A stretch of 64,000 nt of DNA, taken from NCBI GenBank assembly GCA_963701095.1, contig OY969564.1, forward strand, positions 384,001 through 448,000, given 5' to 3'. A program made the translations under genes and the position numbers. How positions within the stretch are numbered: the stretch's first letter is position 1; each line of letters starts with the position of its first letter. The DNA comes from an uncultured Methanoregulaceae archaeon (GTDB lineage Archaea; Halobacteriota; Methanomicrobia; Methanomicrobiales; Methanospirillaceae). Below are positions 17,601 through 33,625 of this stretch, piece after piece. Under the pieces are notes generated by a model. The model was not told the DNA's origin. It saw only the letters and a list, made by a program, of their open reading frames with translations, and did not search any database.

Positions 17601-18278
17601 AAGGCGGAAGATCAAATCCGGCAAGCCCTTGCCGAGAAAGAAATCCTTCTCCGCGAACTCCACCACCGGGTGAAAAATAACCTTGCCGGTATCCTCTCCC
17701 TGATTGGGCTTCAATTAAGTCAGGCTCCGGATTCCAATATCGGATCCCAGTTAAAAGATCTTGAAAGCCGGATTCGGAGCATGTCACTGGTTCATGAATT
17801 ACTATACAAAACCAAAAATCTCTCGGAGATTATGTTCCAGGATTATTGTAATAATCTCATCAACTATCTTGTCCAGTCTTATGGAAGCTCTTTAGATATT
17901 AAATGGGAAATTGCGATGGGAGATACAACCTTACCCATGGATTCTGCTATAGTCTGTGGCATGCTTATCACCGAGATTGTCACAAATAGTCTCAAATATG
18001 CATTCCCGCCGGGGTTCTCCCGCTCCGAACGTGATGACGAACCCTGGACGATTACCCTAACTTTGAAGCGTGATGGAGACGCGACTGTAATGACTATAAG
18101 TGACAACGGTATAGGAATACCCAAGAATATTATCGAGAGCCAACCCACAACACTTGGCATGACCCTGATACATCTCTTTGCCAAGAACCAGCTTCAGGGA
18201 GAAGTTGATATCGATAACAAACGGGGGACAAAGTACACTATTACATTCACTCCAAAATACACAGAGGAATATACATGA
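14631..18278 (+). CDS. Multi-PAS/GAF histidine kinase, HisKA_2 type
   Basis: ATGA overlap with the upstream gene at 14631; [11 protein letters not shown]-box, [16 protein letters not shown]; Cys-rich GAF. Confidence 0.92.
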
Positions 18279-19503
18279 CATCAGGAAAAAAAGTCCTTAT
18301 TGTAGAAGACGATGCTCTGATATCAGCAGGACTTTTGCAGACCGTCCGCAGTTTTGGATATGAAACTGGAAAAGTGGTGGCCACAGGAGAAGATGCTGTA
18401 ATCAGTGCCAAAGAAATCAAACCTGATATTATTCTTATGGATATCAAGCTCGCCGGTACTATGGACGGTATCGAAGCGGCGAGAATCATACGAAGCGCAC
18501 AGGATATTCCGGTGATCTATCTGACCGCTTATTCAGATGACGAGCGATTACGGGAATCTCTCCACACAGAACCTTATGGCTACCTCATCAAACCAGTTAA
18601 GAACGATGACCTACGGACAACCCTTGAAATTACCCTCTACAAACACCAGATGGACATCGCACTTCGGGAAAGCGAAGAACGCTACCGGGCGATAATCACC
18701 CAAGCAATGGAAGGAATCGTTCTTTTCGACCGGGATTCGCACACCATCATCGAGACCAATCCTGCATTCAGGGATCTAGTCGGGTACACAGAAAAAGAAC
18801 TTGCAACTATGAATATCTTTAATATCGTCCCTTATCCTCCAGAGACAGTTAAGTCCCTTTTTTCCAAACTTGAGTGCGAATCGCAATGCAGGCTTGGAGA
18901 ACAGAAAATTCGTCGTAAAGACAATTCCCTGCTCGACGTAGAATGCAACTCGAGTTTTATCCGTTACAAAGGGAAAAACATGATCATCTGCGTTATTGCA
19001 CACGATGTGACCGAGCGTAAGCGTGCAGAGTCCGCCCTTTTTGAAGCCAACAAGAAACTGAACCTGCTCTCCTCCATAACCCGTCATGATGTCCTTAACC
19101 AGCTCATGGCGTTAAGAGCATATTTCATTTTAACAAAAAAGAAAATTACCGACCCAGACCTTTCCGATATCATCCATAAAGAGGAAGAAGTACTCGATAC
19201 CCTCGAACATCACGTAATATTCACTCGAGATTACCAGAACCTGGGGATGAAAGGATCAGCATGGCAAAATGTTGATGAGATTGTACGGAAAGTGGCTGCA
19301 ACGCTGCCGATTAATAAAACACGAGTTGAAACTGATCGATCAGACCTTGAATTGTATGCAGATCCACTATTGGAAAAAGTATTTTATAATCTGATTGACA
19401 ATGCCCTCCGCTACGGGGGAGAGCATATGACAACCATCCAGTTTTCCTCTCGTGAAACAGAAAAGGGGTTTATTGTTTTCTGCGAAGACGATGGCGTTGG
19501 TAT

Positions 19504-20764
19504 GGTAGTGTCTCTATAATGCTGTAAAATCAGCACACCCAGTATCCAAAGAGATCATCTCACTCTTCACAGATAAATACCGGTTACCCGTGATCCACTC
19601 CTCATTAATATCGATAAGGATCGAACCGGTAAGTCTTAACAACGAAGCATCATTCGGGAAAGCCCCTATTTTTCTGCTCCGTCGTTTGAGTTCTTTATTA
19701 ACCCGTTCCAGGAGATTAGTAGTCCGGATCTTTTTCCAGTGTTCCGGGGGAAATGCCCGGTAATTCATCAGGCCGTGCTCGAACCGGTAGATGGTATCAG
19801 CAGCCCGAGAGAGCCCGAAATTCTCCAGTTCCTTCGCATAAGCAAGTAAGAGAGCATGATCACTGAGACATTCTTTGAGTCGTTCGGCGATCGACTTGTG
19901 ATATTTTCGGGAGACTTTTCTCAGAACTGCCCGGATAAAATGAACGTGACAAAGCTGCCATGATGAGCCAGGGAACATCCTTTCGGCAGCCGATTGGATC
20001 CCGGAATGTCCATCTGAAATAACGAGATCCACCTTACTGAGACCACGATCCTTGAGGTCGGAAAATATTCCTTCCCAGGTAAGTTCATGTTCCGCATCAG
20101 TGACACGAGCTCCGAGGATCTCCCGGTATCCGTCTTCCCGTACCCTGGCTGACTACGAGAAGAGTCTTCGTTGATGTACTTGACTCCATCTCTTACTTTG
20201 AAGTACGATGCATCGACGAAAAGATACGGAAAGTGTGAGTCGATGGTTCTTTCCATAAACTCCGTGATTTTCACATCGAGTTCCTGTGCTACCTTCGAGA
20301 CGTAGGACGCCGAAATCTGGGTGACGCCCAGATGTGAGATTACTTTCTCGACATTCCGGGTCGATACGCCCTGAAGATACGATTCGATGATCGCGTTCAC
20401 GAGCGCTTTCTCAGCCCGGGAGTATCGTTCGAATACTTTTGTCTCAAACGGGATCTCGCGTAACTGCGGTTTCTGGAGCATGAGATCCCCGAACCGGGTC
20501 TTCAGGGACCTAGACCGGTACCCGTTCCGATGCGCTCTTCTCGAACTCGATCTCGCGTGTTTCGGTACTCCGGCTTGTTGGGCCACTTCCTCGTTCATCA
20601 CATCGTTCAGAAACCACGTGATGAGCTGTTGCATTCCCTTCTCGTTATCGGTAAGATAATTTAGTACGATGTCGTTTAGATTCATTGCCCTGTATTCTCC
20701 TTGTTGCAATCTGATGTTGGATACAGGGCGTCTTCACTTTTTACAGCACTTCGTGTACACTACC
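19504..20764 (-). mobile_element. IS256-family insertion sequence, copy 1
   Basis: 26-bp imperfect TIRs GGTAGTGT-N8-TGCTGTAAAA at both ends; GTTGGTAT duplicated at 19496-19503 and 20766-20773 (9 bp with one mismatch); Mutator-type transposase. Confidence 0.95.
19514..20709 (-). pseudogene. IS256 transposase, frameshifted around 20100-20180 (possibly a sequencing error)
   Basis: Split into ORFs 19921..20709 and 19514..20032; motifs RNGYRSRSLKTRFG, LVISDGHSGI, WQLCHVHF, RTTNLLERVNKELKRR. Confidence 0.88.
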
Positions 20765-21111
20765 GGTTGGTATCGCTGATGATGAAAAAGATCTCATCTT
20801 TGAACATGGATTCGGGAAAAACACCGGTCTTGGACTGTTCTTAGTCAGGGAGGTGTTGGGAATTAACGGTATGACCGTTAAAGAAACCGGTACACCAGGT
20901 AAAGGAGCACGATTCGAGATTACCGTTCCAAAAGGGATGTACCGGCGAGTTGAAGTAACTTAGATCTTTTTGGGTTCTGTCAAGTCTTCGGATGTTGGCG
21001 TTAAGCCTACATCGAAGAAAATATGTCATCTCCCGCAGACTTGACAGAGCCCAGCTTTGTATTAAACGGATTTGTAAGAGAATTCCAACAGAAAATGGAG
21101 GATTTATTTGA

Positions 21112-22074
21112 TCAGGATTTTTTGAACCGCGTGAGAATATAGCTCGTCAGGGTCTTGCCACTGATATTTCGGGTAGATGCATCAACCCGGATAAAGAAGA
21201 ACTCTTCACTACCGGTATCAACAAAGACCGGTTTTTCTGCCGGGGTGATATGCACATGACAAAGTGTTTTTTCCGAGATAACCGGGAATGTGATGTGAAT
21301 ATACTGGCTCGCTGTCTCATAGATCTCAGGAATGTACCGCCGTATTACCGAGTCAATTAGCATTCGCCGGTACCCGTCCGGGTTTCGGTCTTTTTCCAGC
21401 ATTCGGGAATAATCGTCATCGATCCCCACAACCTTTATCATATTTTTTACCCGGTCTTCTTCTATACCTATAATGAGATCTCCACCACTGGAATTCAGGA
21501 AACCGGCAATTGACCTTGCGATAATAAATTTCGAAGCGTTGGTCCGGTATTTTCGCACTTCTGCCGATTCACTAACATCAGCCTCTTCTTTGGAAACCCT
21601 CGTGCTCCAAAGGGCTTTAAACTTAAACTCAACCCTTTCACTTTCCCCGGTGGCGATCATCATCCTGACAGCAATGGTATCATCCTCGGGCACGTTGATT
21701 TGAAGTGCATTCCGTTGTTTGATGACGTAGGAAGAAACCACGGCAATGCCGATAAACAGAAGCGCCTGAAAGATTACGCCACCTACGACAAACACATTTG
21801 GAGTGAGAAAATATGCTGATACCAGCAGGTAAGAAACTGCACAGCCTCCGGCGACATAAATCCCGCGAGAAGGGTAAAAATACGTGGCATAAAGGATTGG
21901 GAAATAGAAAAGCTGCGGGACTATTGAGCCATATCCGGCCGCCATGGAAATATAGGTAACCCCGATGATAGAGGCAGTAATTGAAGCGATAACCCAAAAC
22001 CTGACAAGATCGTTTTGCTGTATTTGAAAGGTGTTCGGTAAACGGTATCCTGGAAGAGCGGGTGTTGGATCCAT
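21112..22074 (-). CDS. 4TM membrane domain fused to a Schlafen/AlbA_2 domain
   Basis: Four hydrophobic helices then GESERVEFK...IAGFLNSSGGDLIIGI...FFIRVDASTR, typical AlbA_2 motifs. Confidence 0.85.
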   Translation of the reverse strand: MDPTPALPGYRLPNTFQIQQNDLVRFWVIASITASIIGVTYISMAAGYGSIVPQLFYFPILYATYFYPSRGIYVAGGCAVSYLLVSAYFLTPNVFVVGGVIFQALLFIGIAVVSSYVIKQRNALQINVPEDDTIAVRMMIATGESERVEFKFKALWSTRVSKEEADVSESAEVRKYRTNASKFIIARSIAGFLNSSGGDLIIGIEEDRVKNMIKVVGIDDDYSRMLEKDRNPDGYRRMLIDSVIRRYIPEIYETASQYIHITFPVISEKTLCHVHITPAEKPVFVDTGSEEFFFIRVDASTRNISGKTLTSYILTRFKKS

Positions 22075-22244
22075 TGTTAATGAGGGCTTAGACTAAGAGG
22101 CTAATAACCATATCTATAGTCGGTGTTGTTGCTTTAATCGATAGTTAGTGATCTGATTGTCGTCAATATTGACCGATTAATTTTCTCGTTGTTGACTGTC
22201 CCCAAAAACAAAGGATCTCAAATCCTCCATTAATCCCCTTTCAG

Positions 22245-22280
22245 TACACCAAAATTAACATAAATGTTAAGGTTGGTGTA
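22245..22280. promoter_or_regulatory. Inverted repeat, probable AbiEi operator
   Basis: TACACCAAAATTAACAT-AA-ATGTTAAGGTTGGTGTA, 17-bp arms with 2 mismatches, ~30 bp upstream of the antitoxin start. Confidence 0.65.
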
Positions 22281-22309
22281 TCTAAGGGGGAAATTGGGAG
22301 AGGAAGGTT

Positions 22310-23068
22310 ATGACAATTGAAATCCTGAAATCAATGGCAAAAGAGAACCAGATCTTTTCTTTTGCACAGATTTACCAGAAAACGCACATCAAAAAAGAGA
22401 TGCTCTGGGTTATCCTCTCCCGCATGGAAGAGAAAGGGTTCATCGAACGGATTGAGAAAGGAAAGTACCTGATCATCCCCTTGGGTAGCGAGAAAGGGAA
22501 ATATACGCTCCATGAGTTCGTCATTGCGTCCTATATCGTAGAACCGTACGCGATCTCATACTGGAGTGCACTCCATTACTACGGGCTCACGGAACAGATT
22601 CCGACCACCGTCTTTGTCCAGACCCCCGCACGTAAAAAGAAGAGCCGGATAGAGATTTTTGGGGTGAATTACCAGATTGTGCGGGTGAAAGAGGACAAGT
22701 TCTTTGGTATCCGCAATGAGTGGATCGAAGAGACCAAGGTCAATGTCACGGATAAAGAAAAAACGATTATTGACTGCCTTGACAAACCACATTACGCTGG
22801 GGGCATAATCGAAATAGCGAAAGCCATGAAGGATAGGTCGCTGAATTACAATAAGCTCATGGAACATGCAGTTAAACTCAACAACTTTGCAGTTATCCGA
22901 AGGCTCGGTTTTCTTTCCGAGAAAATGGGTGTGCCAATTAATCTCCCGCCACCTCGGTCGAACAAATATTTGCTGCTGGACCCTACGATGCCAGCGAAAG
23001 GGGCAAACGATCCTAAATGGCGGCTTGTGATTAATCAGAATATCATCCCGCCGGAGTCACTTGAATGA
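22310..23068 (+). CDS. abiEi: Type IV TA antitoxin, AbiEi family
   Basis: N-terminal wHTH with RIEKGKY, ISYWSALHYYGLTEQIP, VTDKEKTIIDCL. Confidence 0.88.
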   Translation: MTIEILKSMAKENQIFSFAQIYQKTHIKKEMLWVILSRMEEKGFIERIEKGKYLIIPLGSEKGKYTLHEFVIASYIVEPYAISYWSALHYYGLTEQIPTTVFVQTPARKKKSRIEIFGVNYQIVRVKEDKFFGIRNEWIEETKVNVTDKEKTIIDCLDKPHYAGGIIEIAKAMKDRSLNYNKLMEHAVKLNNFAVIRRLGFLSEKMGVPINLPPPRSNKYLLLDPTMPAKGANDPKWRLVINQNIIPPESLE

Positions 23069-23847
23069 TATCAACTCTTGAGATCATGGAGCACTCACGT
23101 GAGCTCGGCGTGCCACCATCAACCATCGAACGAGACTATGCACAGAACTGGCTCCTTGCCGCCTTGCGTCCTATCAATATAGCTCTTAAAGGAGGAACTG
23201 GCATCCGGAAAGTGTTTATTGAAAACTACCGTTTTTCCGATGACCTTGATTTTACTCTCCTTGAGCCGATCGATGCTGTTACAATGCGAGCCGCAGTTCA
23301 CGATGCAGTTATACAGGTTCGCGATGAGAGCGGTATCCAGTTCGAAAATGAACTCAGCTTCCGAGAAACCAAGAACGGTTTTAAGGCAACTGCCCGGTTC
23401 CGGATCCTGAACCGTCACTCTGCATCCCCGGTAAAAATCGATTTGGACCTGACGAGCCCAAATCAGGAGATGGTTTTGCTTCCGGTCAGTATGCGCCCAG
23501 TCTTCCATCCATATTCCGATAGACTTCAGGGATCTATAACATCGTATGCGCTAGAAGAGATTTTGGCTGAGAAGATTCGCTCTATCTTCCAAAGGACCCG
23601 TTCTCGCGATCTCTATGATGTCTGGCAACTCGCAGATCTTGTGAACCGTGAGAATGTGAGATCAATTCTTTACCAAAAATGCGATTACAAAGGTGTTATT
23701 GTAGACACCGCTATGTTAAAAGTCAAGCGGGACCGGTTTGAAGCGGATTGGAGGGTTTCTTTAGGTCATCAAATGAGACAGATACCCGATTTCAATGAGG
23801 CGTTTGATAAAATCCTGGTTGAGATTGAGGATTATTTAAAAGAGTAA
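23065..23847 (+). CDS. abiEii: Type IV TA toxin, AbiEii nucleotidyltransferase
   Basis: ERDY, LKGGT, RFSDDLDF, EILAEKIRS, RSRDLYD motifs; ATGA overlap with the antitoxin. Confidence 0.92.
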   Translation: MISTLEIMEHSRELGVPPSTIERDYAQNWLLAALRPINIALKGGTGIRKVFIENYRFSDDLDFTLLEPIDAVTMRAAVHDAVIQVRDESGIQFENELSFRETKNGFKATARFRILNRHSASPVKIDLDLTSPNQEMVLLPVSMRPVFHPYSDRLQGSITSYALEEILAEKIRSIFQRTRSRDLYDVWQLADLVNRENVRSILYQKCDYKGVIVDTAMLKVKRDRFEADWRVSLGHQMRQIPDFNEAFDKILVEIEDYLKE

Positions 23848-23915
23848 ATAGTCAGCGTTAATGAATCTGATAGGATCGCAGGACTTGAGATTTCATCCAG
23901 AGTATTCTGTTTCAA

Positions 23916-24290
23916 TCAATCGATTCTTTGCGCCATTTCAATTGCAGTACGCAGTTGACGCATATTGTAGGGTTTTAACAGGTACCCGTCGGGTAAGGTT
24001 TGACGAGCGGTGTTCAGGATTTCCGGTTCGTCGTGTGCGGTGACGTAGATAAAAGGGATATCGGTGTTATTAACGAGATGATCACCGACAATGACACCCT
24101 CGGGTTTTCCCTGGAGCATCAGATCTATCAAGACTATGTCAGGGTTTACTTCTTTGATCTTTGCGATTGCGTCCTGAAAGGTTGCAGCCGATCCGGCACA
24201 CGCATATCCCAGTTTTTCTAAAAATGCTTTGAGAAGTTGGGTCTGATCCGCCTCGTCTTCAACAAAAAAAACACGTTTTGGCGCTGTCAT
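23916..24290 (-). CDS. Stand-alone response regulator receiver protein
   Basis: FVEDE, PDIVLIDLML, YVTAH, YLLKPY. Confidence 0.9.
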   Translation of the reverse strand: MTAPKRVFFVEDEADQTQLLKAFLEKLGYACAGSAATFQDAIAKIKEVNPDIVLIDLMLQGKPEGVIVGDHLVNNTDIPFIYVTAHDEPEILNTARQTLPDGYLLKPYNMRQLRTAIEMAQRID

Positions 24291-24560
24291 GGTATCCTCC
24301 TATATCGTTGTTTAGATGCTACTGTTACATCAAACCTGCAACCGTTTACAGGGACGATGAAGTGAAAGTCAATTTAATATAAATTAATCTTTATGATTAA
24401 TAATAAATCTGCATAGTGGTCCGGTAAAATACCAGGTTTGTTTTTTTCTAATTGTGCAATTCTTTCAATTCGTGCTTGAAAACGCCTGTTTATCTAAGTA
24501 CCCGTAGATTCTTTTGTGTCATTTCCGCGTCCGGACACGTGATGACAGAGTTGAACGGCT

Positions 24561-25235
24561 ATGTCATCAGCAACCAGCACCACAATGTCAAATCTCCTGA
24601 CAGCATCCATCACGCTCATCGCAGGATACATGGGGATTACAATCCCCAACGGCACCGCTTTACCCGCAATGGCAGTCATCATTGTTGCCGCAATAGTATC
24701 GCATTTCCATAACAGCAATCTCATATCAGAGATCGAATCTGCATTTGAAGGAACCGCCAATTCATCGCCCCAGACCTCTTCCAATAGTTCGAAGGTAACA
24801 CCTTCTAGCACGCAATCTTCCGTACCTGTAGCAGTTACCCCATCTGTACCAGCACCTCAGACAACTCCGGCACCGTCATCTGCAACCGCTACCGCAGCTT
24901 CGTCATGGATCCAGAATGCTAACGGTACCTATACCAACACGGTCACCGGACGAACATACGCTACACTCGCCCTCGGATATTCCATCGAAGCGACCATTGC
25001 TGCAGCCCAGGCATCGACTGCAGGTACACCACATACGGTCGTTACCCCGAACGGTCAGCAGTTCAGTACCACTTATTCCCAGTACTGGATGGACCCTACC
25101 TACAACACGGCCATCTATGGCACACCCTCTGCTGCTGTGAAAGCGGCATACTCGGATGCCACGTATGCATTTGCCATCGCTCAATACACGATAGGCGCTA
25201 CAACCACGGCCCCGGCCGTTCCGACAACTTCCTAA
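24561..25235 (+). CDS. Hypothetical membrane/surface protein (two N-terminal hydrophobic helices, S/T/P/A-rich linker, Tyr/Thr-rich tail)
   Basis: 224-aa ORF with a coherent composition; no family recognised. Confidence 0.65.
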   Translation: MSSATSTTMSNLLTASITLIAGYMGITIPNGTALPAMAVIIVAAIVSHFHNSNLISEIESAFEGTANSSPQTSSNSSKVTPSSTQSSVPVAVTPSVPAPQTTPAPSSATATAASSWIQNANGTYTNTVTGRTYATLALGYSIEATIAAAQASTAGTPHTVVTPNGQQFSTTYSQYWMDPTYNTAIYGTPSAAVKAAYSDATYAFAIAQYTIGATTTAPAVPTTS

Positions 25236-25395
25236 TCATATATACCGGGTCCGTGTTTGCCTGCCGTCTGGACCTGTCTCCCGGCACGGCGCAAAACCCT
25301 GTTCGAGGGTGCGGTTCATCCCGCCCGGACTCATCTCCCGTGTAGCCAGACAACCACCTGCCACCGTCATCTCTGGCTGCCGGGAAAATCACTCC

Positions 25396-26040
25396 ATGAA
25401 AACCTACCCTCCCCTGCCCGGGATACCGCAGTGCAACTCCACCTCCACACGAGGAAATAAAATTGTCTGGATGAATGGGCCTGAAGGATATCATTATTTC
25501 CGGCAGGTTGAATTTACTGTTTATCGAAATGAGCGCCCTGTAAACCTGGAATGGATTGTCGAGAATTGCCCCCGTATTAATCATATTAACGCATATGAAA
25601 AACCCCTTCCGTGGAATAAGATAGATGGCGATATGCAAACGATCCACGCGTGGTATCTTCGGAATTATGATTATGATTGTGACCCCGAAGGCAATTACAA
25701 ATTCGCCGCACCGGGTGAGGCAATTTTTCCATATCTTGTGGGATGGGTGCCGGGCTCAACATGTGGGGATTGTTACACTCTCGATAATCCACAAAATAAA
25801 ATCCCGCATTGGGTTATGACTAGGAAAAAATACGGAGACGGGAATTTTGGGTATTGTTATGATGCAATACACTACCGTGCTGACCACGCTCATACCCCCG
25901 GACAATACAACCACCTGAAAAGCATCGAATTGGATTTGGAAAATGCGTTAAGGGCGTACAAATCCACGCATAAAGAAAATTGGTTCGATCCCACATTATG
26001 GGATATGGGATTGGAACCTTCTGGATGGGGAATCCACTAA
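25396..26040 (+). CDS. Hypothetical protein (Trp/Tyr/His/Cys-rich)
   Basis: Likely start MKTYPPLPG at 25396; first gene of a closely spaced run leading into the Rep gene. Confidence 0.65.
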   Translation: MKTYPPLPGIPQCNSTSTRGNKIVWMNGPEGYHYFRQVEFTVYRNERPVNLEWIVENCPRINHINAYEKPLPWNKIDGDMQTIHAWYLRNYDYDCDPEGNYKFAAPGEAIFPYLVGWVPGSTCGDCYTLDNPQNKIPHWVMTRKKYGDGNFGYCYDAIHYRADHAHTPGQYNHLKSIELDLENALRAYKSTHKENWFDPTLWDMGLEPSGWGIH

Positions 26041-26051
26041 TCAAAATTTAG

Positions 26052-26273
26052 GTGAATAAAATGACTGAAAAAATAATTAATATCGATAACAGGGAGCGTG
26101 TTTTTGTTCCCTGTCAATGTAAAGACTGCCTGAATACAACCGCGTATATGGTAGGCGATACCTACCGGCGGAGATATTGCAATTTCCATTATCGACAAAT
26201 CCACAATGATCTAATTGCCAAAGGTGCGACGGCAGAAGAATTAAAGAAGGCACTTCTGGAGGATTTGGTATGA
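26052..26273 (+). CDS. Small zinc-finger-like protein
   Basis: CQCKDC...YCNFH; ATGA overlap with the next gene. Confidence 0.6.
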   Translation: MNKMTEKIINIDNRERVFVPCQCKDCLNTTAYMVGDTYRRRYCNFHYRQIHNDLIAKGATAEELKKALLEDLV

Positions 26274-27760
26274 CGGAAACTATACCCGGTCTGAATATCT
26301 CATTATCTGATCTGGATATTGAAACTCCGTTAATTCTTCATGGTTCTGATAAATACAACCACGATGAGACAATTCAAAAAATCATACAGATTCTTGTTTA
26401 TAACGAAGTGAACCAGAAGGATCTAAAATATGAAAGATTCTTAAAACCCTTAAAGAAGGGCGAACAGGAATCAAAATTTTATCCACTAACAAAGGACGAA
26501 TTAAAAATCTGTATCGAAAAATCAAAGGAAATAATTCTATCCATTCATCGGATGAATGAAGAGAAAACACAAGCAACAGAGGATCAACTCAACCAAGGAC
26601 GAGAAACCATACAGAAGATGAGAGAGGAGAGACTAGAGAAAGAAGAACAAAACAATATTGAACTTCTGGAATATGCCGGATCGATATTCTATGGAGGGGA
26701 TTTCATCGAATATTGTAAGGCGGTTTTTGAAAAGATATGGTATGGAGATGAGTATGTACTAGAGGCGGTTCTTTATCAATCAGCAATTGCCAGAATGAAA
26801 AACCCCTATGATGGGTTGCATCTTCATATTGCCGGATCAACACAGATGGGAAAATCTGATAGTATAGTTCATTCTCTCTATTTCGTTCATCCTTCTGACG
26901 TTCTGAATATGAAATTCTCAAAACAATGGATGTTCTATACCAAAAAATTACATGAAAGAATGATTCTGTTTAACGATGATGTGACGATGGGACCGGATGA
27001 GGCGCAACACCTGCGGGCATTTCTCACTTCTTGGAAGACGGGAAACAAAAGAGGAGTTGTAATAAATGGGGATGAAAGGGAATTATCAATTCCCCGGCGT
27101 GTAAGTCTCATCTTAACAAGTGTGGAAAATGTTTCTAAAGAATCTGAAGATGCACAAGACGAAAGCAGGTTCTTAACGGTGAATATGCGAAACAGATCAC
27201 CGGAAACAGAGAAAGCAGTAAGAAAATTCATGCAGCAACCCCCGGTTGACATATCACGAGAACTAAAAATAATCCATCTGATATGGGATTATTTCGTAGA
27301 GCCAGAAAAAATAAAGGTTGAACTTCACGACACGATAGAAAAAGAAATGCCAAACAGGGAGTTTAAGCGATTTCTTTCAATGATACAGGCACATGCTCTC
27401 CTTTGCGGTAGAACAAAAACGACTAAAGAAGATACGGATGCAATAGATATTTTCTTACTAAACACGCGTCCGATGTTAAACGCAACCACGGCGGGATTTA
27501 CCAATAACGAATTGTGTGTATCCGAATGTCTCAGTACGGAAAATTGGATGAGCACAAGGGAGATACAAGAGAAAACAGGTATGAGTTATGCAAATGTAGC
27601 AAGGGCATTACATGGTAACAAAGGTACTTTTGAGAATCCAACCAATGGACTTTTGGTAAAATCCAAAATCCAACAGAAATTAAACAGAGATGAAAATGAA
27701 AACAACGTTCGAAAATTCAAGAAAATGGTGGTTGGTGCGGCAGTACAGACAAAATTTTAA
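26270..27760 (+). CDS. Putative replication protein: AAA+ (MCM-like) ATPase/helicase with C-terminal wHTH
   Basis: Walker A GSTQMGKS, Walker B ILFNDD, Arg finger ESRFL, sensor-2-like REFKRFLSMIQAHALL..R..TKED, HTH MSTREIQEKTGMSYANVARAL; PriCT-1-like PLTKDELKICIEKS. Confidence 0.75.
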   Translation: MTETIPGLNISLSDLDIETPLILHGSDKYNHDETIQKIIQILVYNEVNQKDLKYERFLKPLKKGEQESKFYPLTKDELKICIEKSKEIILSIHRMNEEKTQATEDQLNQGRETIQKMREERLEKEEQNNIELLEYAGSIFYGGDFIEYCKAVFEKIWYGDEYVLEAVLYQSAIARMKNPYDGLHLHIAGSTQMGKSDSIVHSLYFVHPSDVLNMKFSKQWMFYTKKLHERMILFNDDVTMGPDEAQHLRAFLTSWKTGNKRGVVINGDERELSIPRRVSLILTSVENVSKESEDAQDESRFLTVNMRNRSPETEKAVRKFMQQPPVDISRELKIIHLIWDYFVEPEKIKVELHDTIEKEMPNREFKRFLSMIQAHALLCGRTKTTKEDTDAIDIFLLNTRPMLNATTAGFTNNELCVSECLSTENWMSTREIQEKTGMSYANVARALHGNKGTFENPTNGLLVKSKIQQKLNRDENENNVRKFKKMVVGAAVQTKF

Positions 27761-27777
27761 AAATTAAAATACGCCCG

Positions 27778-28072
27778 ATTAACACGGATTACGCGGAATT
27801 ACACAGCAATTTACACACTTTTTTTTAAACCTTCGGGGCCATTTACACATTTACACGTTTTTTGGTGTTTGCGAGCAAGCAACCAAAAAAATATTTTCAA
27901 AATTCATACGCGTTCTATGAAAATCATTATACACGTTCTAAAAATGAAAAATATTTTTCAAAATACCCCCCTCTCATTTTTGTGTAAATAGGTGTAAATG
28001 TGTAAATGCTCCTCTATAATAATAAAAAATAATAATGTAAATAGGTGTAAATAGGTGTAAATCATTGTTAAT
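27778..28072. repeat. Inverted iteron-like arrays flanking an AT-rich core (putative replication origin)
   Basis: ATTTACAC and variants at 27778, 27788, 27798, 27809, 27841, 27849; reverse complement GTGTAAAT at 27982, 27992, 28000, (28036), 28045, 28055. Confidence 0.8.
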
Positions 28073-28321
28073 GGACAAAACGGAGTTTAATTCTTTGTCC
28101 GTTTCCACTTTTTCAGAGGTGCGTATTCATAACTATATCCACAAAGTTATGAACTTCATATACATTCTATCCCACCACCCGGCGCTTCAATATGCGTTCT
28201 GTTATGAACCGCTCATAACCCCCCGTGGAGGGTTTCATCTCGCGTTCTGTTATGAATTATCCCAACACCCGCGTTCTATCCAGCAATCGATCCAACCCAG
28301 TTACCCCACAACGCCCGCGTG

Positions 28322-28414
28322 GTTATACAACTTCGACGTAGTTATACAACTTGTTTTGTGGTTGTATAACTTCGACGTGAATATAGTTGTATAACTTCCT
28401 TGTAGTAATACAAC
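28322..28414. repeat. Array of five quasi-palindromic GTTRTAYAAC 10-mers
   Basis: GTTATACAAC at 28322 and 28341, GTTGTATAAC at 28361 and 28386, GTAATACAAC at 28405; two are followed by TTCGACGT. Confidence 0.8.
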
Positions 28415-28472
28415 CATTATAGGGCTTTGTACCTAAAGTCCGATCAAGGATGAGTCAAACTTGGCGACAACA

Positions 28473-29063
28473 TCACTCATGCCTTTGGTTTTGCCACTTT
28501 TTCCACGCAGAAAGGATCATTGACGCCTCAAGGGGAGTTTTAGGCGAATTGGTTAAGCGCATCCCGCCTAACCGCCCGCGCAGATATAAAGCATCAGTGT
28601 CTTTAGGTGTAAACCGCAACACATAATCTAGGCACCACAACGCTTCCTGATATCGCTTAAGATTAAAGAGCGCCCACGAATAGTTATACAGCGTCGCACA
28701 ATTAACCACCGGCAGGGTGTTGGCCTTCTGGCTACCGAGCAACAGGAGGATTAATCCGGCGATGCTCTCGTTTTGATTGTCTATGTAAAAATCCCCCACA
28801 CCCTCTATCAGTAGATTGCCACGTAACGATTTCTCCCATGCCAGCAACGCAGCTGGGAGATCACCTATATTTGAATAGGCATAACCCAATGTCCACCAGT
28901 CAAAAAGTGTCATGCTCTCTGGTGGAACCTCTTTCATCGTCGTAATGCACTTTTCCCATTCCTTCGCACTGGCGAACTTTGTTGCATCCTTGGCAAGTGA
29001 GTGCGTCTCCATCGGGTATGGCTTCGTTTTCTCCTTCTTTTTCAGAAAGTCAAAAATGCCCAT
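28473..29063 (-). CDS. Tetratricopeptide repeat protein
   Basis: WWTLGYAYSNIGDLPAALLAWEKSL and LYNYSWALFNLKRYQEALWCLDYVLRFTPKDTDALYLRG; start MGIFDFLKK. Confidence 0.8.
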   Translation of the reverse strand: MGIFDFLKKKEKTKPYPMETHSLAKDATKFASAKEWEKCITTMKEVPPESMTLFDWWTLGYAYSNIGDLPAALLAWEKSLRGNLLIEGVGDFYIDNQNESIAGLILLLLGSQKANTLPVVNCATLYNYSWALFNLKRYQEALWCLDYVLRFTPKDTDALYLRGRLGGMRLTNSPKTPLEASMILSAWKKWQNQRHE

Positions 29064-29323
29064 TGTTATCAACTAAATTATCATTTCAAAAATATATTAA
29101 GTTCGGGCTAGGGCTTAATGTCAGAGTTCTTCATTAAGACCACCGCGAGACTTACGCATAAGATAAAAAAAAGATTGTGGGCTTTTTGGAATGCTGGACA
29201 GGTAAGAAACACATCCGCTCTTATATTTTAGGTGCAAGTCAAAGACTTTAGGTGCAGAACGCAACTTCAGATGCCCCATTATAGGAAATGTTTATATACA
29301 TAAATTATCTAGGCATATATATT

Positions 29324-29611
29324 ATGATTGGTTCTGACAAACAAATGGTTAACGTTGCGCTTCTCCGTGAAGATGTCGAACGCATTAAGAAATTGAAGAA
29401 ACCTGTATCGGAGTTTTGCTGTGAGACGGTAAGCGAACGATTAAGGATTATCGAATTGGCAAAAGAGAACACGGTGCAGGATTGGATGTATGTGGATGCA
29501 GACACGGTGACGGATACAGACCAGATAGTTATTGAGCCGGATCCGGTTCATGATGATCCCCCGGTTATGAAAACAAACCCGGATTGGTCTAAACTTTTTG
29601 CCAGAGTATAG
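29324..29611 (+). CDS. Small putative ribbon-helix-helix/CopG-like regulator
   Basis: MVNVALLREDVERIKKLKKPVSEFCCETVSERL fits a strand-helix-helix pattern; TTTATATA box upstream. Confidence 0.5.
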   Translation: MIGSDKQMVNVALLREDVERIKKLKKPVSEFCCETVSERLRIIELAKENTVQDWMYVDADTVTDTDQIVIEPDPVHDDPPVMKTNPDWSKLFARV

Positions 29612-29905
29612 ACGCGTATTACATCATCATGAAATAGAAATCATACGCGTTCTATCGTCGCTGCTAATAATAATAAAATCGCATAGCGCGGTTTCTGTGG
29701 TTTTTACACAAACCACATGCACTTATGCGATCCGGCAGCACTTTTGCCACTGGGCGCAATCTGTGCGGGTCACGGAATGATGTGAGCGGGTGGAGGGAAT
29801 CAACATCTTGATGAATCATCAAAAGCGTATTTTGAAATTCATAAATACATTTATGATTTTCACCAAACCGATAGGTATTTGCCCATTTGAATAAATCAAT
29901 CGTGT

Positions 29906-30130
29906 ATGGTAAAATGGGAAATCATTATACCCGGTATAATTTGTTTCGTAATTGGTATAGCGGCAATTGTTTATGCAGCAAGTTTGGGAACTTCGTCTAA
30001 TATCCCCAATACTTCGTGGACAGAATCACAAATTCTTGGATATCCCGTCCGGGTAATTGGTGAATATATCTTTGGAGTTAGTTTGATTATAATAGGGCCT
30101 TATTTGATGAATAAAGGGTGGAAGTTCTAA
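29906..30130 (+). CDS. Small 2-TM membrane protein
   Basis: Two hydrophobic helices; converges on the minus-strand operon. Confidence 0.6.
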   Translation: MVKWEIIIPGIICFVIGIAAIVYAASLGTSSNIPNTSWTESQILGYPVRVIGEYIFGVSLIIIGPYLMNKGWKF

Positions 30131-30324
30131 CATCCTACCCTTTTAACTTCGATAAATGCGCCACTTATCGTTAAAATTGTAGCAATGAGAACCATGTAAA
30201 AACCACTATCCAAATTTTCTGGAATTCGTAAATATTCACCTAATAGAAGTTCAACCATAATGATACCAGCAATTCCCATAAACCAATAGGCAATTAATTT
30301 TTGATTGTCTCTAAAAAATGTCAT
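30127..30324 (-). CDS. Small 2-TM membrane protein
   Basis: Hydrophobic 65-aa ORF, ATGA overlap with the upstream gene. Confidence 0.6.
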   Translation of the reverse strand: MTFFRDNQKLIAYWFMGIAGIIMVELLLGEYLRIPENLDSGFYMVLIATILTISGAFIEVKRVGC

Positions 30325-30602
30325 AGATTACACTCCTCTATCTTCACACTTCCCAACCACGCACCAAAAAATACCAGGCAAAAGGCAAGCACGATTAAAT
30401 CCCCGATGAGAGCATACCCACCGTACTGAGCCGGCGCCGTGTGTATTGTATCGGTGAATCCAGCCATCATGTTTGAATAGTACGCATCCACGATCCGGGG
30501 CATTATCGAAGAGAAAAACGCCAATATCAAAAAAGAGGGTATGAGGATAAAGGAAAGTCTAGTTTTTATTGGAGATCTCCTTATCTCGTATGCGGTTATC
30601 AT
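30321..30602 (-). CDS. Small 2-TM membrane protein
   Basis: Hydrophobic 93-aa ORF, ATGA-coupled on both sides. Confidence 0.6.
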   Translation of the reverse strand: MITAYEIRRSPIKTRLSFILIPSFLILAFFSSIMPRIVDAYYSNMMAGFTDTIHTAPAQYGGYALIGDLIVLAFCLVFFGAWLGSVKIEECNL

Positions 30603-30727
30603 TTTTCCAACCGCACAACAAGATCCGGATACACTTCTAATATTCCCAAAAGTGCCTCTTCGGGAATATCTACCAACACCCCGCCGTCTTTAATTTCTAA
30701 TCCGGTATCAGTCGTATCCAAAATCAT
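30599..30727 (-). CDS. 42-aa acidic hypothetical protein (not in ORF track)
   Basis: MILDTTDTGLEIKDGGVLVDIPEEALLGILEVYPDLVVRLEK; stop overlaps the next ATG. Confidence 0.55.
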   Translation of the reverse strand: MILDTTDTGLEIKDGGVLVDIPEEALLGILEVYPDLVVRLEK

Positions 30728-30869
30728 CCCCATCCTCAAACTGGTGCTCCAGCTTCCATGCAAAGTCCTCATTTCTCTGCGCCAAAAATGCCAGTTCTTC
30801 TATGGATGCATAAAACGGTTCTCCGTTTTCATCGGCAATCACTGTGTAAAATTCGTTTTTACGCACCAT
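30708..30869 (-). CDS. 53-aa acidic hypothetical protein (not in ORF track)
   Basis: MVRKNEFYTVIADENGEPFYASIEELAFLAQRNEDFAWKLEHQFEDGDDFGYD; TGATG coupling to the upstream ORF. Confidence 0.55.
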   Translation of the reverse strand: MVRKNEFYTVIADENGEPFYASIEELAFLAQRNEDFAWKLEHQFEDGDDFGYD

Positions 30870-31015
30870 CAGAAATCACGTGGTTCTCCTGTCTCACGGC
30901 ATAATTCCCGGCAGCATTTTGTACAAATTATCGCCAATGGTGTATCGAAATACTGCCGGCGCTTGTGCGTTTCACAGAGACGGCATTTCCTTACTCTCCA
31001 CGGGCCGGAACTCAT
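30869..31015 (-). CDS. 48-aa zinc-finger microprotein
   Basis: CRLC...CTKCC..LC; starts 5 bp after the stop of 31020..31331. Confidence 0.55.
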   Translation of the reverse strand: MSSGPWRVRKCRLCETHKRRQYFDTPLAIICTKCCRELCRETGEPRDF

Positions 31016-31019
31016 GATA

Positions 31020-31331
31020 TCACAAAATCCTTTTCCCCATCGCATATACCGCCGTGCCGCTTCCAAACGCCGGTCTTTTCTTGGCAGCGGGCCGGTGTTG
31101 GGTTTGTGCTCTCTGTTGTGCGGTTTGTGCCCGCTGTGCATACGCGGCAGCTTCCCCGGGTGTGATTATTTTCCCGTTCAAACTTCGATACCCCTGATTT
31201 GCCAGATACTTCATTGCCGCTTGTGATATTGCCGCTTGCGAAGCGCCGGGATTTGCACGGGCGATTTTGTTATAAATCGCGTTAAATGCTGCTTGTGCCG
31301 CTGGACTTGCATTTAGTTTAGGTGGTGTCAT
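31020..31331 (-). CDS. Basic Ala/Gln-rich hypothetical protein
   Basis: 103-aa ORF, nearly no acidic residues, ATGA-coupled. Confidence 0.6.
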   Translation of the reverse strand: MTPPKLNASPAAQAAFNAIYNKIARANPGASQAAISQAAMKYLANQGYRSLNGKIITPGEAAAYAQRAQTAQQRAQTQHRPAAKKRPAFGSGTAVYAMGKRIL

Positions 31332-31534
31332 GTGCGATCACTCCCTCTAAACGACGCGCCGGCCACATGTGCATTTTTACGACTATGCGGAATGCGGAGT
31401 TTGAGATTTGAACTTGTCTTAACCCGTGTGTAGATTTCATTCCCTGTCACCACCACGGCCACCAAAGAAAGAAAATCGTTTCTTTTCTCCCTGTTCTGCA
31501 TTCTTGCTAATTCTACCGAGAAACCCGGTTTCAT
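31328..31534 (-). CDS. Hypothetical protein
   Basis: 68-aa ORF coupled to the downstream gene. Confidence 0.4.
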   Translation of the reverse strand: MKPGFSVELARMQNREKRNDFLSLVAVVVTGNEIYTRVKTSSNLKLRIPHSRKNAHVAGASFRGSDRT

Positions 31535-31620
31535 TATTTATGTTTTGATTTACACGATCCCACTGTGAACCCTTCTTATCTAAAAATCCCATATTAATCA
31601 CGTCCTGAATTTTTCTTAAA

Positions 31621-31737
31621 TCAACCGATATTCAAACCACGATTTACTTTTTCATTATATCTGGTGATATCCCCTTCCGCATCCTTCCGGATCGGCACTT
31701 CTTGCTTTTCACGAATGATAAAAATTCTATCCATCAT
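31621..31737 (-). CDS. 38-aa hypothetical protein
   Basis: MMDRIFIIREKQEV...; TAATG coupling to 31737..32309. Confidence 0.4.
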   Translation of the reverse strand: MMDRIFIIREKQEVPIRKDAEGDITRYNEKVNRGLNIG

Positions 31738-32309
31738 TACCGCCTCCGTGAGGGTTTCTTTTTTCTTTTCGCTGTAGTGGATTTTTTTGGAAGACTTGAA
31801 CCAATACCAAACCCGCCTCCGGACATAAGACCAGACATGCCAGGAACAGAACTTGGAACAGACCAAAGAGAATGATAATTATCATTCGCAGTTTTTTTAT
31901 TCGATACTCCTATAGGCGCAGTAACCCATGTACCAGAAACATTCTCCCAGCCACTACTACGCATTGCCTCATGTCTGCGATTTGCGACGTTTGAACCTTC
32001 TACATATCGAGAGGTTGTTTTTTGGATCGCACCATGAACTTTACCCGCAACCCGGCGCACCTTCGTGAGTATCGGGTGTTTCTTTTCGTATTCTTCCTTG
32101 TCCTTTGCCGGTTTCTGTTGCTCACGGAGTTTTTTGTTTAAGTCCCGGCGTGCCTGTTGATTAGCAGGGACTCCGTTAACTTTCACATTCTGCGAGCGGG
32201 AACCACGGGCGGGAGATTGTTTTTGAGGCTGTTGTTTCTGGTGATTCTTCATCCACTCAACATACTCGGCCCCGGTTAGCCCCTCTGGTGCGTCATCTTG
32301 CATAATCAC
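31737..32309 (-). CDS. Highly basic low-complexity hypothetical protein
   Basis: 190 aa, K/R/Q-rich, Gly-rich segment then C-terminal KKSTTAKRKKKPSRRR. Confidence 0.65.
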   Translation of the reverse strand: MIMQDDAPEGLTGAEYVEWMKNHQKQQPQKQSPARGSRSQNVKVNGVPANQQARRDLNKKLREQQKPAKDKEEYEKKHPILTKVRRVAGKVHGAIQKTTSRYVEGSNVANRRHEAMRSSGWENVSGTWVTAPIGVSNKKTANDNYHSLWSVPSSVPGMSGLMSGGGFGIGSSLPKKSTTAKRKKKPSRRR

Positions 32310-32473
32310 AACTCCCCGATCTCCTCCATACAGGACAGAACTTGTTTGTTTACTCGCCTGTGTGTGCCGATGTGATCTTGTACATAGGCACTATGAAGTG
32401 CATCCTCATGGTTTTTGTATTGAGAATGAACGCGCTGCTTTTTTCGTCTAACAATTATTTTTGCAATTACCAT
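32306..32473 (-). CDS. 55-aa basic hypothetical protein (not in ORF track)
   Basis: MVIAKIIVRRKKQRVHSQYKNHEDALHSAY...; overlaps the start of the next gene. Confidence 0.5.
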   Translation of the reverse strand: MVIAKIIVRRKKQRVHSQYKNHEDALHSAYVQDHIGTHRRVNKQVLSCMEEIGEL

Positions 32474-32479
32474 TTTTCT

Positions 32480-32668
32480 TCACCTTACTCCTGAAAACAA
32501 AATATCGACGTGTAACAATATCCCGCACAACTTCCGCCCGATACCCGCGATCTTCCCAAGACCGGGCTTCTGCTCGGGCATATCTGATACCCGCCGGCCC
32601 ACTTTTGAGACCCTAATACCGGGGCGACCGTCGATAATCGGGTTGTGTGTTTGAATGTGACGTGTCAT
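32480..32668 (-). CDS. Hypothetical protein, first gene of the minus-strand operon
   Basis: 62-aa ORF; TATA-rich tract at ~32710-32750 upstream. Confidence 0.5.
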   Translation of the reverse strand: MTRHIQTHNPIIDGRPGIRVSKVGRRVSDMPEQKPGLGKIAGIGRKLCGILLHVDILFSGVR

Positions 32669-32826
32669 CGGTTTTTCTCTCTATTTCTTCAATCAATATT
32701 AGACAGAAGATATAAGTACTGCTATATACTTATAGTATTTAAATATATCTACACAAATCGCGTATTACAACGACGGAGAAAGAACACACGCGCACATGCG
32801 CGGAAAGAAAATGCAAAAATCAAGCG

Positions 32827-32952
32827 CGGGGCGGTGTCCAGGTGGTATCTGCTGACGGGAAACCGTACCATATCCGGAACCGGCTCACTCTCTGCCGGTG
32901 CGGGAAATCACAGAACAAGCCGTTCTGCGATGGGAGTCATGCACAGCATTGA
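32827..32952 (+). pseudogene. 3' remnant of a CDGSH iron-sulfur domain gene
   Basis: RGGVQVVSADGKPYHIRNRLTLCRCGKSQNKPFCDGSHAQH*; no in-frame start back to the TAA at 32740. Confidence 0.88.
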
Positions 32953-32988
32953 CATAATAAGAATGATCACAGAGGAGTGAAAAGAACC

Positions 32989-33402
32989 ATGAGTTTTGTT
33001 AAAGTTGCAAAAGCTGGTGAGATACCTGCCGGAGCTATGAAACATGTTGAGGTGGGCGGGACAGAGATTTGCATTGCAAATGTCAAAGGGACATTTTATG
33101 CAATCGGAGACCGTTGTGGCCACGAGAATGCAAGGCTCTCCCGGGGCTCCCTGATGGATACCATCGTGACTTGCCCCATGCATTCTTCACAGTTTGACGT
33201 AACCACCGGGAAACTTATGTCCGGGCCGGTTCTGGAACTCGGCGGGCTCAAGGAGATGTTTACCGGCTGTCCCGAAAAAGTGAAAAAAGCGGTGGCGCAG
33301 ATGTTTGAGGGAATTGTCGAGGAGCAGCGCCTGATCAAGACGTACGATCAATCGGTTTACGAAGTGAAAGTGGATGGTGATGATGTGCTGGTTCAGCTTT
33401 AA
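32989..33402 (+). CDS. Rieske [2Fe-2S] ferredoxin
   Basis: CGH...CPMH ligands, FDVTTGK..GP; helical insertion before the C-terminal strands. Confidence 0.9.
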   Translation: MSFVKVAKAGEIPAGAMKHVEVGGTEICIANVKGTFYAIGDRCGHENARLSRGSLMDTIVTCPMHSSQFDVTTGKLMSGPVLELGGLKEMFTGCPEKVKKAVAQMFEGIVEEQRLIKTYDQSVYEVKVDGDDVLVQL

Positions 33403-33625
33403 ACTCAGGTGTTGACCGATGCAGCCTGAACAAATTAGGTAACATTCAACGAGATTGTCTATGATTAAAACAAGAGAGACAACCCAATAATGTGCAATAA
33501 ATGTATTCAAATAACCAATTTCGGCTCTGTTAACTTGTTAGGAGATAATCATTTTTTCAATGCTAATTCATGAAAAATCATGACGAGATGAATATATCAA
33601 GTCCCGATAATGCACCAGAATCCCA

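Follow-up and report, generated by a model that had tools for sequence, protein, structure and literature searches.

We analysed a 64,000-nt stretch of DNA (referred to below as the window), which corresponds to positions 384001-448000 of the single-contig 2.63-Mb genome of an uncultured methanogen, and we concentrated on a block of orphan open reading frames (ORFs) in it that a preliminary description, made from the letters of the sequence, had presented as laid out like a small replicon. The ORF map agrees with this layout. We consider it probable that the block derives from a small, self-replicating mobile element of Methanoregula, i.e. a cryptic integrated element or integrative plasmid, and that it is an integrated and truncated copy of this element, probably immobilised by now. 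The core of the element is a replication cassette, in which a small zinc-finger protein is coupled to an MCM-like AAA+ protein (Rep) with a C-terminal winged helix, followed by an iteron- and A+T-rich region. The window copy is best read as stranded beside a broken host gene, the end of the element that carries the integrase and Prim-Pol having been lost or exchanged. The family of methanogen elements to which it belongs, with an MCM-like Rep beside a repeat-rich origin, seems to be undescribed. The features of the block are as follows (window coordinates).

24561..25235, + strand: orphan ORF of 224 aa, with an N-terminal hydrophobic segment (residues 24-51) and a Ser/Thr/Ala/Pro-rich tail
25309..26040, + strand: orphan ORF of 243 aa, weakly matching DUF6009 and conserved from residue ~41 onwards
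26061..26273, + strand: putative zinc-finger protein of 70 aa (a 70-73-aa ORF, alternative start 26052), Cys/His-rich, C-x-C-x2-C...C-x2-H
26270..27760, + strand: Rep, a P-loop protein of 496 aa, with a helical arm (residues 1-130), a predicted MCM-type AAA+ core (~130-415) and a predicted winged helix (~409-489)
27761..28472, no strand: putative replication origin of 712 nt, with iteron groups and an A+T-rich stretch
28473..29072, - strand: TPR protein of 199 aa (TPR_2, E 1.1e-6, 28.7 bits versus a cut-off of 27)
29288..29611, + strand: RHH-like small regulator, likely start near 29324
29906..30130, + strand: protein of 74 aa with two hydrophobic segments (2-TM), converging on the - strand operon; a 73-aa ORF lies at the same place in the syntenic relative L029
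30127..32668, - strand: operon of some 10-11 micro-ORFs, coupled through overlaps of 1 or 4 nt
32826..32949, + strand: right junction, with the last 42 codons of a host gene for a 233-aa CDGSH iron-sulfur protein (tblastn, residues 192-233)

Rep was modelled with AlphaFold (AF2) on 23 homologues, with a mean per-residue confidence (pLDDT) of 80, and the model was searched against 48,161 PDB representatives by means of structural Z-scores. The top 11 matches were all MCM chains (Z 19.5-16.1), which aligned within model residues 129-422 over 235-268 residues (about 255) with a root-mean-square deviation (rmsd) of 2.9-3.7 Å, and the next matches were RavA, BchI, ComM, BrxL and SCCmec Cch. The PDB matches returned by Foldseek were likewise all MCM, with a best E of 1.5e-8. 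Residues ~403-491 match winged-helix/MarR-type domains (Z 8-9.8, rmsd 1.6-2.4 Å). The N-terminal ~130 residues are helical or disordered, DSSP showing helices only before residue 185; the N-terminal OB-fold/zinc domain of MCM is not present in Rep, and no structural match was obtained before residue 129. The invariant residues of Rep comprise those of Walker A (G189, G194 and K195) and Walker B (D236) and the run Q296-D-E-S-R300, and the invariant Ser-Arg-Phe at 299-301 sits at the position of what we take to be the arginine-finger motif of MCM. When the sequence of Rep was compared with PDB, only chance-level matches and no MCM were obtained. Judged from the models, Rep has an MCM-type AAA+ fold, and it is not an MCM by sequence. 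The preliminary description had expected a zinc finger followed by a Rep with an AAA+ core and a winged helix-turn-helix, and this was borne out: the Cys/His-rich ORF overlaps the ORF of the P-loop protein by 4 nt (translational coupling), and the model gives an AAA+ core plus a winged helix. The predicted complex of the zinc-finger protein and Rep scored 0.00 in two runs, which counts neither for nor against binding. A precomputed Pfam label, PF27228 (PF27228.1), is attached to Rep and all 33 homologues, as a label alone and with no score.

Rep is patchily distributed. Close homologues (E<=1e-40) were found in 9 of the 108 genus genomes, window genome included, and at the family level 9 of 200 other genomes match Rep at E 3.9e-40 or better, the other matches being weak ones to unrelated ORFs of ~1,000 aa. 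The 243-aa ORF has a weak match in 1 of the 200 other family genomes. The genes are thus not conserved chromosomal genes of the relatives. The closest relative of Rep (P0002, 78% identity) lies on a 55.8-kb contig. We fetched 10 related loci from species-representative genomes and 28 from metagenomes, some of which duplicate one contig. Clustering of their ORFs gave a recurrent order of tyrosine integrase, small ORFs (RHH, zinc ribbon), often Prim-Pol, Rep and variable cargo. A tyrosine integrase lies upstream of Rep in 15 of 36 loci, and of the 21 loci without it, 19 extend for less than 2.4 kb on the upstream side of Rep and two for ~4.7 kb; the epithet 'integrase-less' given earlier to the block is therefore true of the window copy but not of the family. 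Separate Prim-Pol genes stand directly upstream of Rep in L029, L036 and L037, and in one homologue (P0009) Rep is fused to Prim-Pol (E 2.2e-41).

Several of these relatives have limits that can be recognised. The contig of L057 (5,836 nt) has an 85-nt terminal repeat and is therefore circular, with a size of ~5.75 kb; it encodes an integrase, an RHH protein, a zinc-finger protein and Rep, and carries iterons. L039 lies between 33-nt repeats 13.8 kb apart, one of which is the 3' end of a tRNA-Leu gene, and L041 lies between 20-nt repeats 8.8 kb apart. In L043, the element separates two host genes whose distance in L041 is 1 kb, and the inserted DNA amounts to 11.4 kb at most. The finding of the same Rep in integrase-bearing elements and on one circular contig supports the earlier suggestion of an integrated or captured member of a possibly undescribed family of small Methanomicrobiales plasmids, satellites or non-tailed viruses; the syntenic and circular relatives that would go with it exist in L029 and L057. 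Five loci (L039, L043, L053, L056 and L060) carry a split terminase large-subunit gene downstream of Rep, and L039 additionally carries a tape-measure gene of 1,184 aa. These are elements of ~8-14 kb with integrase, Rep and terminase, a satellite-like gene set, and no portal or capsid family was found in their scanned ORFs.

Neither the single Rep sequence nor its 23-sequence profile found a relative in IMG/VR, and tblastn with Rep gave no match in 72,556 plasmid records (PLSDB) or 50,697 phage/virus records (INPHARED). A profile of a 93-aa 2-TM protein of the operon also found no relative in IMG/VR. No match to a described virus or plasmid thus emerged for Rep, the search having covered Rep and, in IMG/VR, this one 2-TM protein. 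The CRISPR spacer match that the preliminary description had proposed to look for was absent: the one array of the host genome (61 repeats, 60 spacers) has no spacer that matches the window, any related locus fetched or the rest of the genome at E<=0.05.

Two further groups of Rep-like sequences were noticed. The host genome has a second, fragmented element (L031/L032), which lies across the chromosome start point (2624609-2625686 and 1-3354 of contig C1 of G000) beside a replication factor C gene; its Rep pieces are 47% identical to the window Rep, its integrase is split in two ORFs and a 403-aa ORF lies between. The breaks in it may partly reflect assembly indels. In L015 (268-3474) and many loci of genus g14, ORFs of ~1,000-1,100 aa match Rep residues ~130-465 at 24-28% identity; they give up to 7 matches per genome (matches, not copy numbers) and have no Pfam family. 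They are an uncharacterised multi-copy AAA+ gene family of a sister genus.

The preliminary description had noted a repeat-rich non-coding region of ~700 bp, and the 712-nt gap downstream of Rep indeed has repeats beyond chance. Eight of the window's 11 GTGTAAAT/ATTTACAC sites fall in 27809-28062, while 2.2 GTGTAAAT sites are expected by chance in the whole 64 kb and none of 100 shuffles reached 11. The ATTTACAC/GTGTAAAT iteron groups, in opposite orientation, flank a stretch of 70% A+T, and the gap has further repeat sets, CGTTCTRT/GTTATGAA and GGTTATACAACTTCGACGT. In the relatives, the place directly downstream of Rep is similarly built but uses other words: L029 has its own iteron ATTACCCC in 6 copies, L057 and L036 have ATTATCAC in 9 and 6 copies, respectively, and L044 has ATTTTCAC in 7 copies. 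Little or no iteron signal was seen in the intervals taken from L037 and L039. The iteron word therefore co-varies with the element in 5 of the 7 loci examined, as predicted for a cognate pair of initiator and origin. With its clustered direct and inverted repeats and A+T-rich spacer beside the initiator gene, the gap at 27761-28472 is a putative iteron-type replication origin.

The syntenic relative is L029 (the same as L040), from another metagenome-assembled genome (MAG) of Methanoregula. Window positions 26061-32819 match 9116-14876 of L029 at 70-89% DNA identity. Common to both are the zinc-finger protein, Rep, a portion of the origin, the RHH gene and all but one of the 11 operon ORFs; protein identities are 86% for the zinc-finger protein, 40-50% for Rep and 55-89% for the operon ORFs. 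The DNA homology begins exactly at the ATG of the zinc-finger gene. To the left of this gene L029 has a tyrosine integrase of 440 aa, small ORFs and Prim-Pol, whereas the window has two unrelated orphan ORFs. Because unrelated orphan genes stand in the window at the place of the integrase and Prim-Pol of this closest syntenic relative, we read the window copy as truncated or recombined.

The two orphan ORFs yielded little similarity to anything. The preliminary description had placed one unknown protein in the + strand module; orphan + strand ORFs are present there, but two of them rather than one. The 224-aa ORF has no family in Pfam, PHROGs or PADLOC and no counterpart in any related locus. 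The 243-aa ORF, which sits where relatives have Prim-Pol, matches PF19472 (DUF6009) at E 3.5e-6 with 27.6 bits, under the cut-off of 28.6; an exhaustive HMMER search found 3 matches to it among 1.84 billion representatives (a word-based search gave 1), a search of the Atlas gave no usable match, and its AF2 model, made from 4 sequences, was unusable (pLDDT 41).

No integrase, transposase, terminase, capsid, portal or defence family was found in the block with Pfam, PHROGs, NCBIfam and PADLOC; there is also no Prim-Pol and no large protein in it. None of the genome's 12 PF00589 matches lies inside the window, 33 integrase, Prim-Pol and small-protein queries from the relatives gave no tblastn match below E 0.01 in the window, the window has no tRNA gene, and no direct repeat of the attachment-site (att) type was found flanking the block. 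The absence of integrase, transposase, terminase, capsid and att repeat stated earlier thus holds for the block in Pfam, PHROGs, tblastn and repeat checks. A 10-nt TGCAAAAAAT-like repeat occurs both where the L029 integrase gene starts and at the right end of that element; it is about at chance level and was not used as an att site. Rfam gave no match in 24000-33500 at E<=1.

Downstream of the gap, the layout foreseen earlier (a TPR gene, then an RHH-like gene and a converging operon of about 11 coupled micro-ORFs) agrees with what we found and, for the RHH-like gene and operon, with the counterparts in L029. The TPR gene, which has no match in L029, is cargo. The RHH-like ORF has no Pfam match of its own; its positional counterpart in L029, to which it is 26-27% identical, matches RHH_5 at E 3.1e-4, below the cut-off. 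In the comparison of window and L029, the ratio of nonsynonymous to synonymous substitution rates (dN/dS) was 0.13-0.45 for 8 micro-ORFs (0.13 for the 93-aa 2-TM protein and 0.15-0.45 for seven further ones), 0.55 for one and saturated for one; it was 0.19 for the zinc-finger protein. The + strand frames that overlap the operon ORFs score higher. Because of this codon comparison and the L029 counterparts for 10 of 11, the micro-ORFs look like real genes. They encode basic proteins of 190 aa (isoelectric point (pI) 10.6) and 103 aa (pI 11.1), a frame of 90 aa rich in Cys (pI 10.0), as well as two acidic proteins of 53-57 aa and 2-TM proteins of 93 and 65 aa. No operon protein has a Pfam, PHROGs or PADLOC family, and a search of the Atlas with the 190-aa basic protein gave no usable match. 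Public data contain 18 relatives of the 93-aa protein, two of which are probably on the same contigs as the two closest Rep homologues, because the contig sizes (55,810 and 1,350,471 nt) are equal. At position 32587 the assembly has a probable 1-nt deletion, where a contig of sequencing run X1 has an extra G; with this G the first operon ORF becomes 73 aa, of which 51/68 residues are identical to the L029 ORF, versus 25/62 as assembled.

The right end of the block is sharp, at 32825|32826, and the homology to L029 ends at 32819. Beyond it stands the remnant of the CDGSH gene, whose residues 192-233 are matched by tblastn at 78-93% identity; its first 191 codons are missing from the vicinity. 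In 5 of the 8 relatives examined, an intact copy stands just before a Rieske gene, as a 233-aa ORF in L085, L086, L087 and L089 and as a longer frame in L088, and the host genome has a full-length CDGSH paralogue 205 kb away. The 127 nt conserved at 32826-32952 were tried as a leader RNA and rejected, since they are the 3' end of the CDGSH gene. One X1 contig bridges 32069-33282 without mismatch, and another spans 24334-25899. Run X1 may be the source sample of the genome, and its contigs were assembled separately but are not fully independent. In a sister sample (X2), a contig with 99% identity over 620 nt extends beyond 32826 to the left, where it reads as an intact CDGSH gene. Given the bridging X1 contig and the unbroken X2 allele, the right junction is real and polymorphic in the sampled population.

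The left end, by contrast with this sharp right end, is undefined: homology to the L029 element does not set in before 26061. Directly to the left of the block lies a mosaic of accessory genes, with an insertion sequence (IS), AlbA_2, AbiEi/AbiEii and an orphan receiver gene, and the stretch 23850-24560, which holds the orphan receiver gene, has no match in other genus genomes. The preliminary description had the block lying between host-type genes, which is right for the CDGSH/Rieske side but not for the left side, where the neighbours are not conserved host genes. The comparison with an empty locus that it had also proposed succeeded in part: the right junction is unbroken in the X2 contig, but the left flanks are not syntenic in 8 relatives.

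The reading of the block as a truncated, integrated element goes with the following mechanism. With the winged helix as recognition domain, Rep hexamers would bind their cognate iterons, open the A+T-rich spacer and then unwind the DNA. Priming would be performed by the element's own Prim-Pol where present, and by the host primase in the case of the window copy. The integrase would carry out integration and excision in family members, and the window copy would have lost it by deletion or module replacement and persisted as chromosomal DNA. The basic and 2-TM micro-proteins of the operon may act in maintenance, exclusion or packaging.

A number of observations weigh against this reading. Rep does not match PF00493, the Pfam family of MCM, at E<=0.01, and the profile of 23 Rep homologues aligned with the host MCM by hhalign at a probability of 0.6% and E 0.098. 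The helicase activity of Rep and the origin function of the gap are both putative. The contig depth in X1, a coarse measure, is 5.6-8.7 in the block versus 5.2-9.0 in the flanks; there is hence no sign of an extrachromosomal form, and the coverage jump that had been suggested as a check is absent. As neither an att repeat nor a left boundary was found, the element may have arrived either by illegitimate recombination or by site-specific integration with a later deletion. That Rep, the zinc-finger protein and the operon have stayed intact under purifying selection would be compatible, too, with domesticated genes or with an element that still acts in trans. The upstream ORFs at 24561-26040 have no relatives in any related locus and differ in GC content (0.51-0.56 at the 224-aa ORF versus 0.34-0.41 in the Rep/origin part), and they may not belong to the element. 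Finally, the assembly has at least one likely 1-nt indel, and some ORF limits may be off.

It is also conceivable, and in our estimate unlikely, that the block is a tiny non-tailed provirus or virus satellite, whose operon is a minimal module for virion or vesicle packaging and whose Rep drives replication after induction. The operon invites this thought, for it is under purifying selection, travels with Rep and includes the proteins of pI 10-11 (190, 103 and 90 aa) and, counting the 74-aa protein, three 2-TM proteins (93, 65 and 74 aa). Among viral models the best named match of Rep, at rank 2, is ORF A460 of fusellovirus SSV-K1 (BFVD model Q6TDM5; TM-scores 0.52/0.56), with 19% identity over 422 columns; no other fusellovirus gene, however, is detectable in the block. 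The satellite-like members of ~8-14 kb with a terminase large subunit, one of them with a tape-measure gene, lie in the same direction. Set against these points are the lack of any capsid, spike, portal or packaging-ATPase family in the block in Pfam and PHROGs, the lack of relatives of Rep or the 93-aa protein in IMG/VR and of Rep in the virus records, and the 60 host spacers, none of which matches the window or the fetched loci; a resemblance of the 2-TM micro-proteins to spindle-virus capsid proteins is no more than putative. If it were true, the 8-14-kb members with terminase as their only such gene, accompanied in one case by a tape-measure gene, would be the first satellites of archaeal tailed viruses of the kind of phage-inducible chromosomal islands (PICIs).

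We give still less credence to the idea that the block is what is left of a much larger tailed provirus, with deletion endpoints at both ends and the operon as its early or lysogeny region. The right end is a break in a host gene whose other half is missing, the Rep family does occur beside terminase genes (5 loci) and a tape-measure gene (1 locus), and the right flank of L029 beyond 14876 is not classifiable as host or element. However, no operon protein occurs in any terminase-bearing locus, the homology between window and L029 stops at the same point (32819 and 14876, respectively) despite different flanks, and wherever a relative has recognisable limits its size is small (5.75, 8.8, at most 11.4 and 13.8 kb).

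That the block consists of host or domesticated genes, or is a defence island and not a mobile element, appears very improbable. Its single-copy, flank-level depth and intact genes suit this explanation, and it adjoins AbiEi/AbiEii and an AlbA_2 protein; on the other side, PADLOC matches none of 18 block proteins, the distribution is patchy with relatives that are integrase-linked, circular or att-bounded, and the host gene at the right junction is uninterrupted in a nearly identical variant from the population. An assembly chimera, which might be suspected from a genome that is 86% complete though a single contig and from at least one likely indel error in the block, is practically dismissed by separately assembled X1 contigs (X1 being possibly the source sample) that cover 24334-25899 and bridge 32069-33282, across the right junction, without mismatch.

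The integrated, truncated element that we favour is of a kind already known, namely archaeal cryptic integrated elements and N-domain-less MCM-like helicases on mobile elements. The Rep family, its zinc-finger partner, the co-varying iterons and the micro-protein operon appear to be new in the searchable literature. In the passages cited here, the cryptic integrated elements (CIEs) of Thaumarchaeota are described as mostly <20 kb, integrated and without viral hallmark genes, with an integrase, RHH/wHTH regulators and replication proteins of mobile-element type (MCM, Cch-like AAA+ helicase, primpol); in some of them no att sites can be recognised, and these are considered inactivated (PMC6563490). 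The window block is like them, as far as these passages go, in having its own replication protein and no viral hallmark genes, and it is patchy (9/108) with an insertion polymorphic at the right junction. It differs in lacking an integrase and att repeats, the latter being present in the relatives L039 and L041. Methanoregula moreover belongs to another phylum, Rep has no sequence-level MCM match, and the same passages report no conserved micro-protein operon for CIEs.

Among single proteins, SCCmec Cch (PDB 5dgk) is a structural match to Rep with Z 10.4, and the RepA-MCM of the Sulfolobus plasmid pTAU4 is presumably an N-domain-less precedent. BcMCM of a Bacillus cereus prophage is an MCM-like helicase without the MCM N-domain that is detectable as MCM by BLAST, and RepA-MCM of pTAU4 is named as an aligned MCM sequence in the same text, both in the sections cited (PMC2715239). 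Rep resembles BcMCM, Cch and presumably RepA-MCM in that a mobile element encodes an MCM-type AAA+ core devoid of the N-terminal OB/Zn domain, along with a primase that is fused to it or lies next to it. It differs from BcMCM in not being found as MCM by sequence. It also differs from all three in that the primase is separate or absent, a zinc-finger gene is coupled upstream and a C-terminal winged helix is kept. With the cellular archaeal MCM (host copy at G000 2556232-2556903) Rep shares the predicted fold of the ATPase core and the C-terminal winged helix, but Rep has no N-terminal domain, no significant sequence similarity and a patchy distribution linked to mobile elements.

To our knowledge, very few mobile elements are known for Methanomicrobiales and there are no genetic tools for Methanoregula. 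In the literature we found no described Methanoregula plasmid or integrated element, and nothing on a mini-MCM of archaeal plasmids. The window copy is a decayed example, which limits its own interest. Taken with its relatives, the locus outlines a family of integrative elements of 6-14 kb that combine an integrase, Prim-Pol, a zinc-finger protein, an N-domain-less MCM-like helicase and a cognate iteron origin with exchangeable cargo modules. The Rep plus origin cassette of ~2.4 kb and the natural circular relative of 5.75 kb are candidate starting points for shuttle vectors, and the family offers a test of an MCM core working without its N-terminal domain.

Other features were noted in the neighbourhood of the block. 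Positions 21112-23847 contain an AlbA_2/Schlafen-domain gene together with a toxin-antitoxin pair, AbiEi/AbiEii (PADLOC E 1e-85 and 3.7e-66); AlbA_2 and AbiE are separate units, found with 72-87% identity in many genus genomes, often at contig ends. Further to the left, a 1,270-bp IS of the IS256/Mutator type (19496-20765) splits the kinase end of a response regulator-PAS-histidine kinase (RR-PAS-HK) gene at 18275-19519. The run-contig depth of this IS256 copy is ~5-fold above that of its neighbours, and since one X2 contig joins 19495 to 20766, the insertion is polymorphic. On the right, the CDGSH/Rieske pair with a 144-aa gene upstream is conserved in relatives and split over three places in the host genome: the intact CDGSH gene, the 144-aa gene with a Rieske paralogue, and the CDGSH stub with the Rieske gene (window 32826-33402, G000 588891-589586 and 1008292-1009164). 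This three-way split points to rearrangements among paralogues.

The flanks of the L029 element deserve mention as well. The integrase end adjoins, at 2004-5028 of L029, an OLD-type ATPase/TOPRIM gene that is truncated at its N-terminus; a UvrD-type helicase gene comes next, and the pair has a Gabija-like arrangement. A defence locus may have been the place of insertion. To the right of the element, within 15998-16750, some 690 nt are 98% identical to a stretch in the chromosome of another species (G186); the last ~65 nt are a repeat that recurs at numerous contig ends of the genus and is probably the terminus of an IS.

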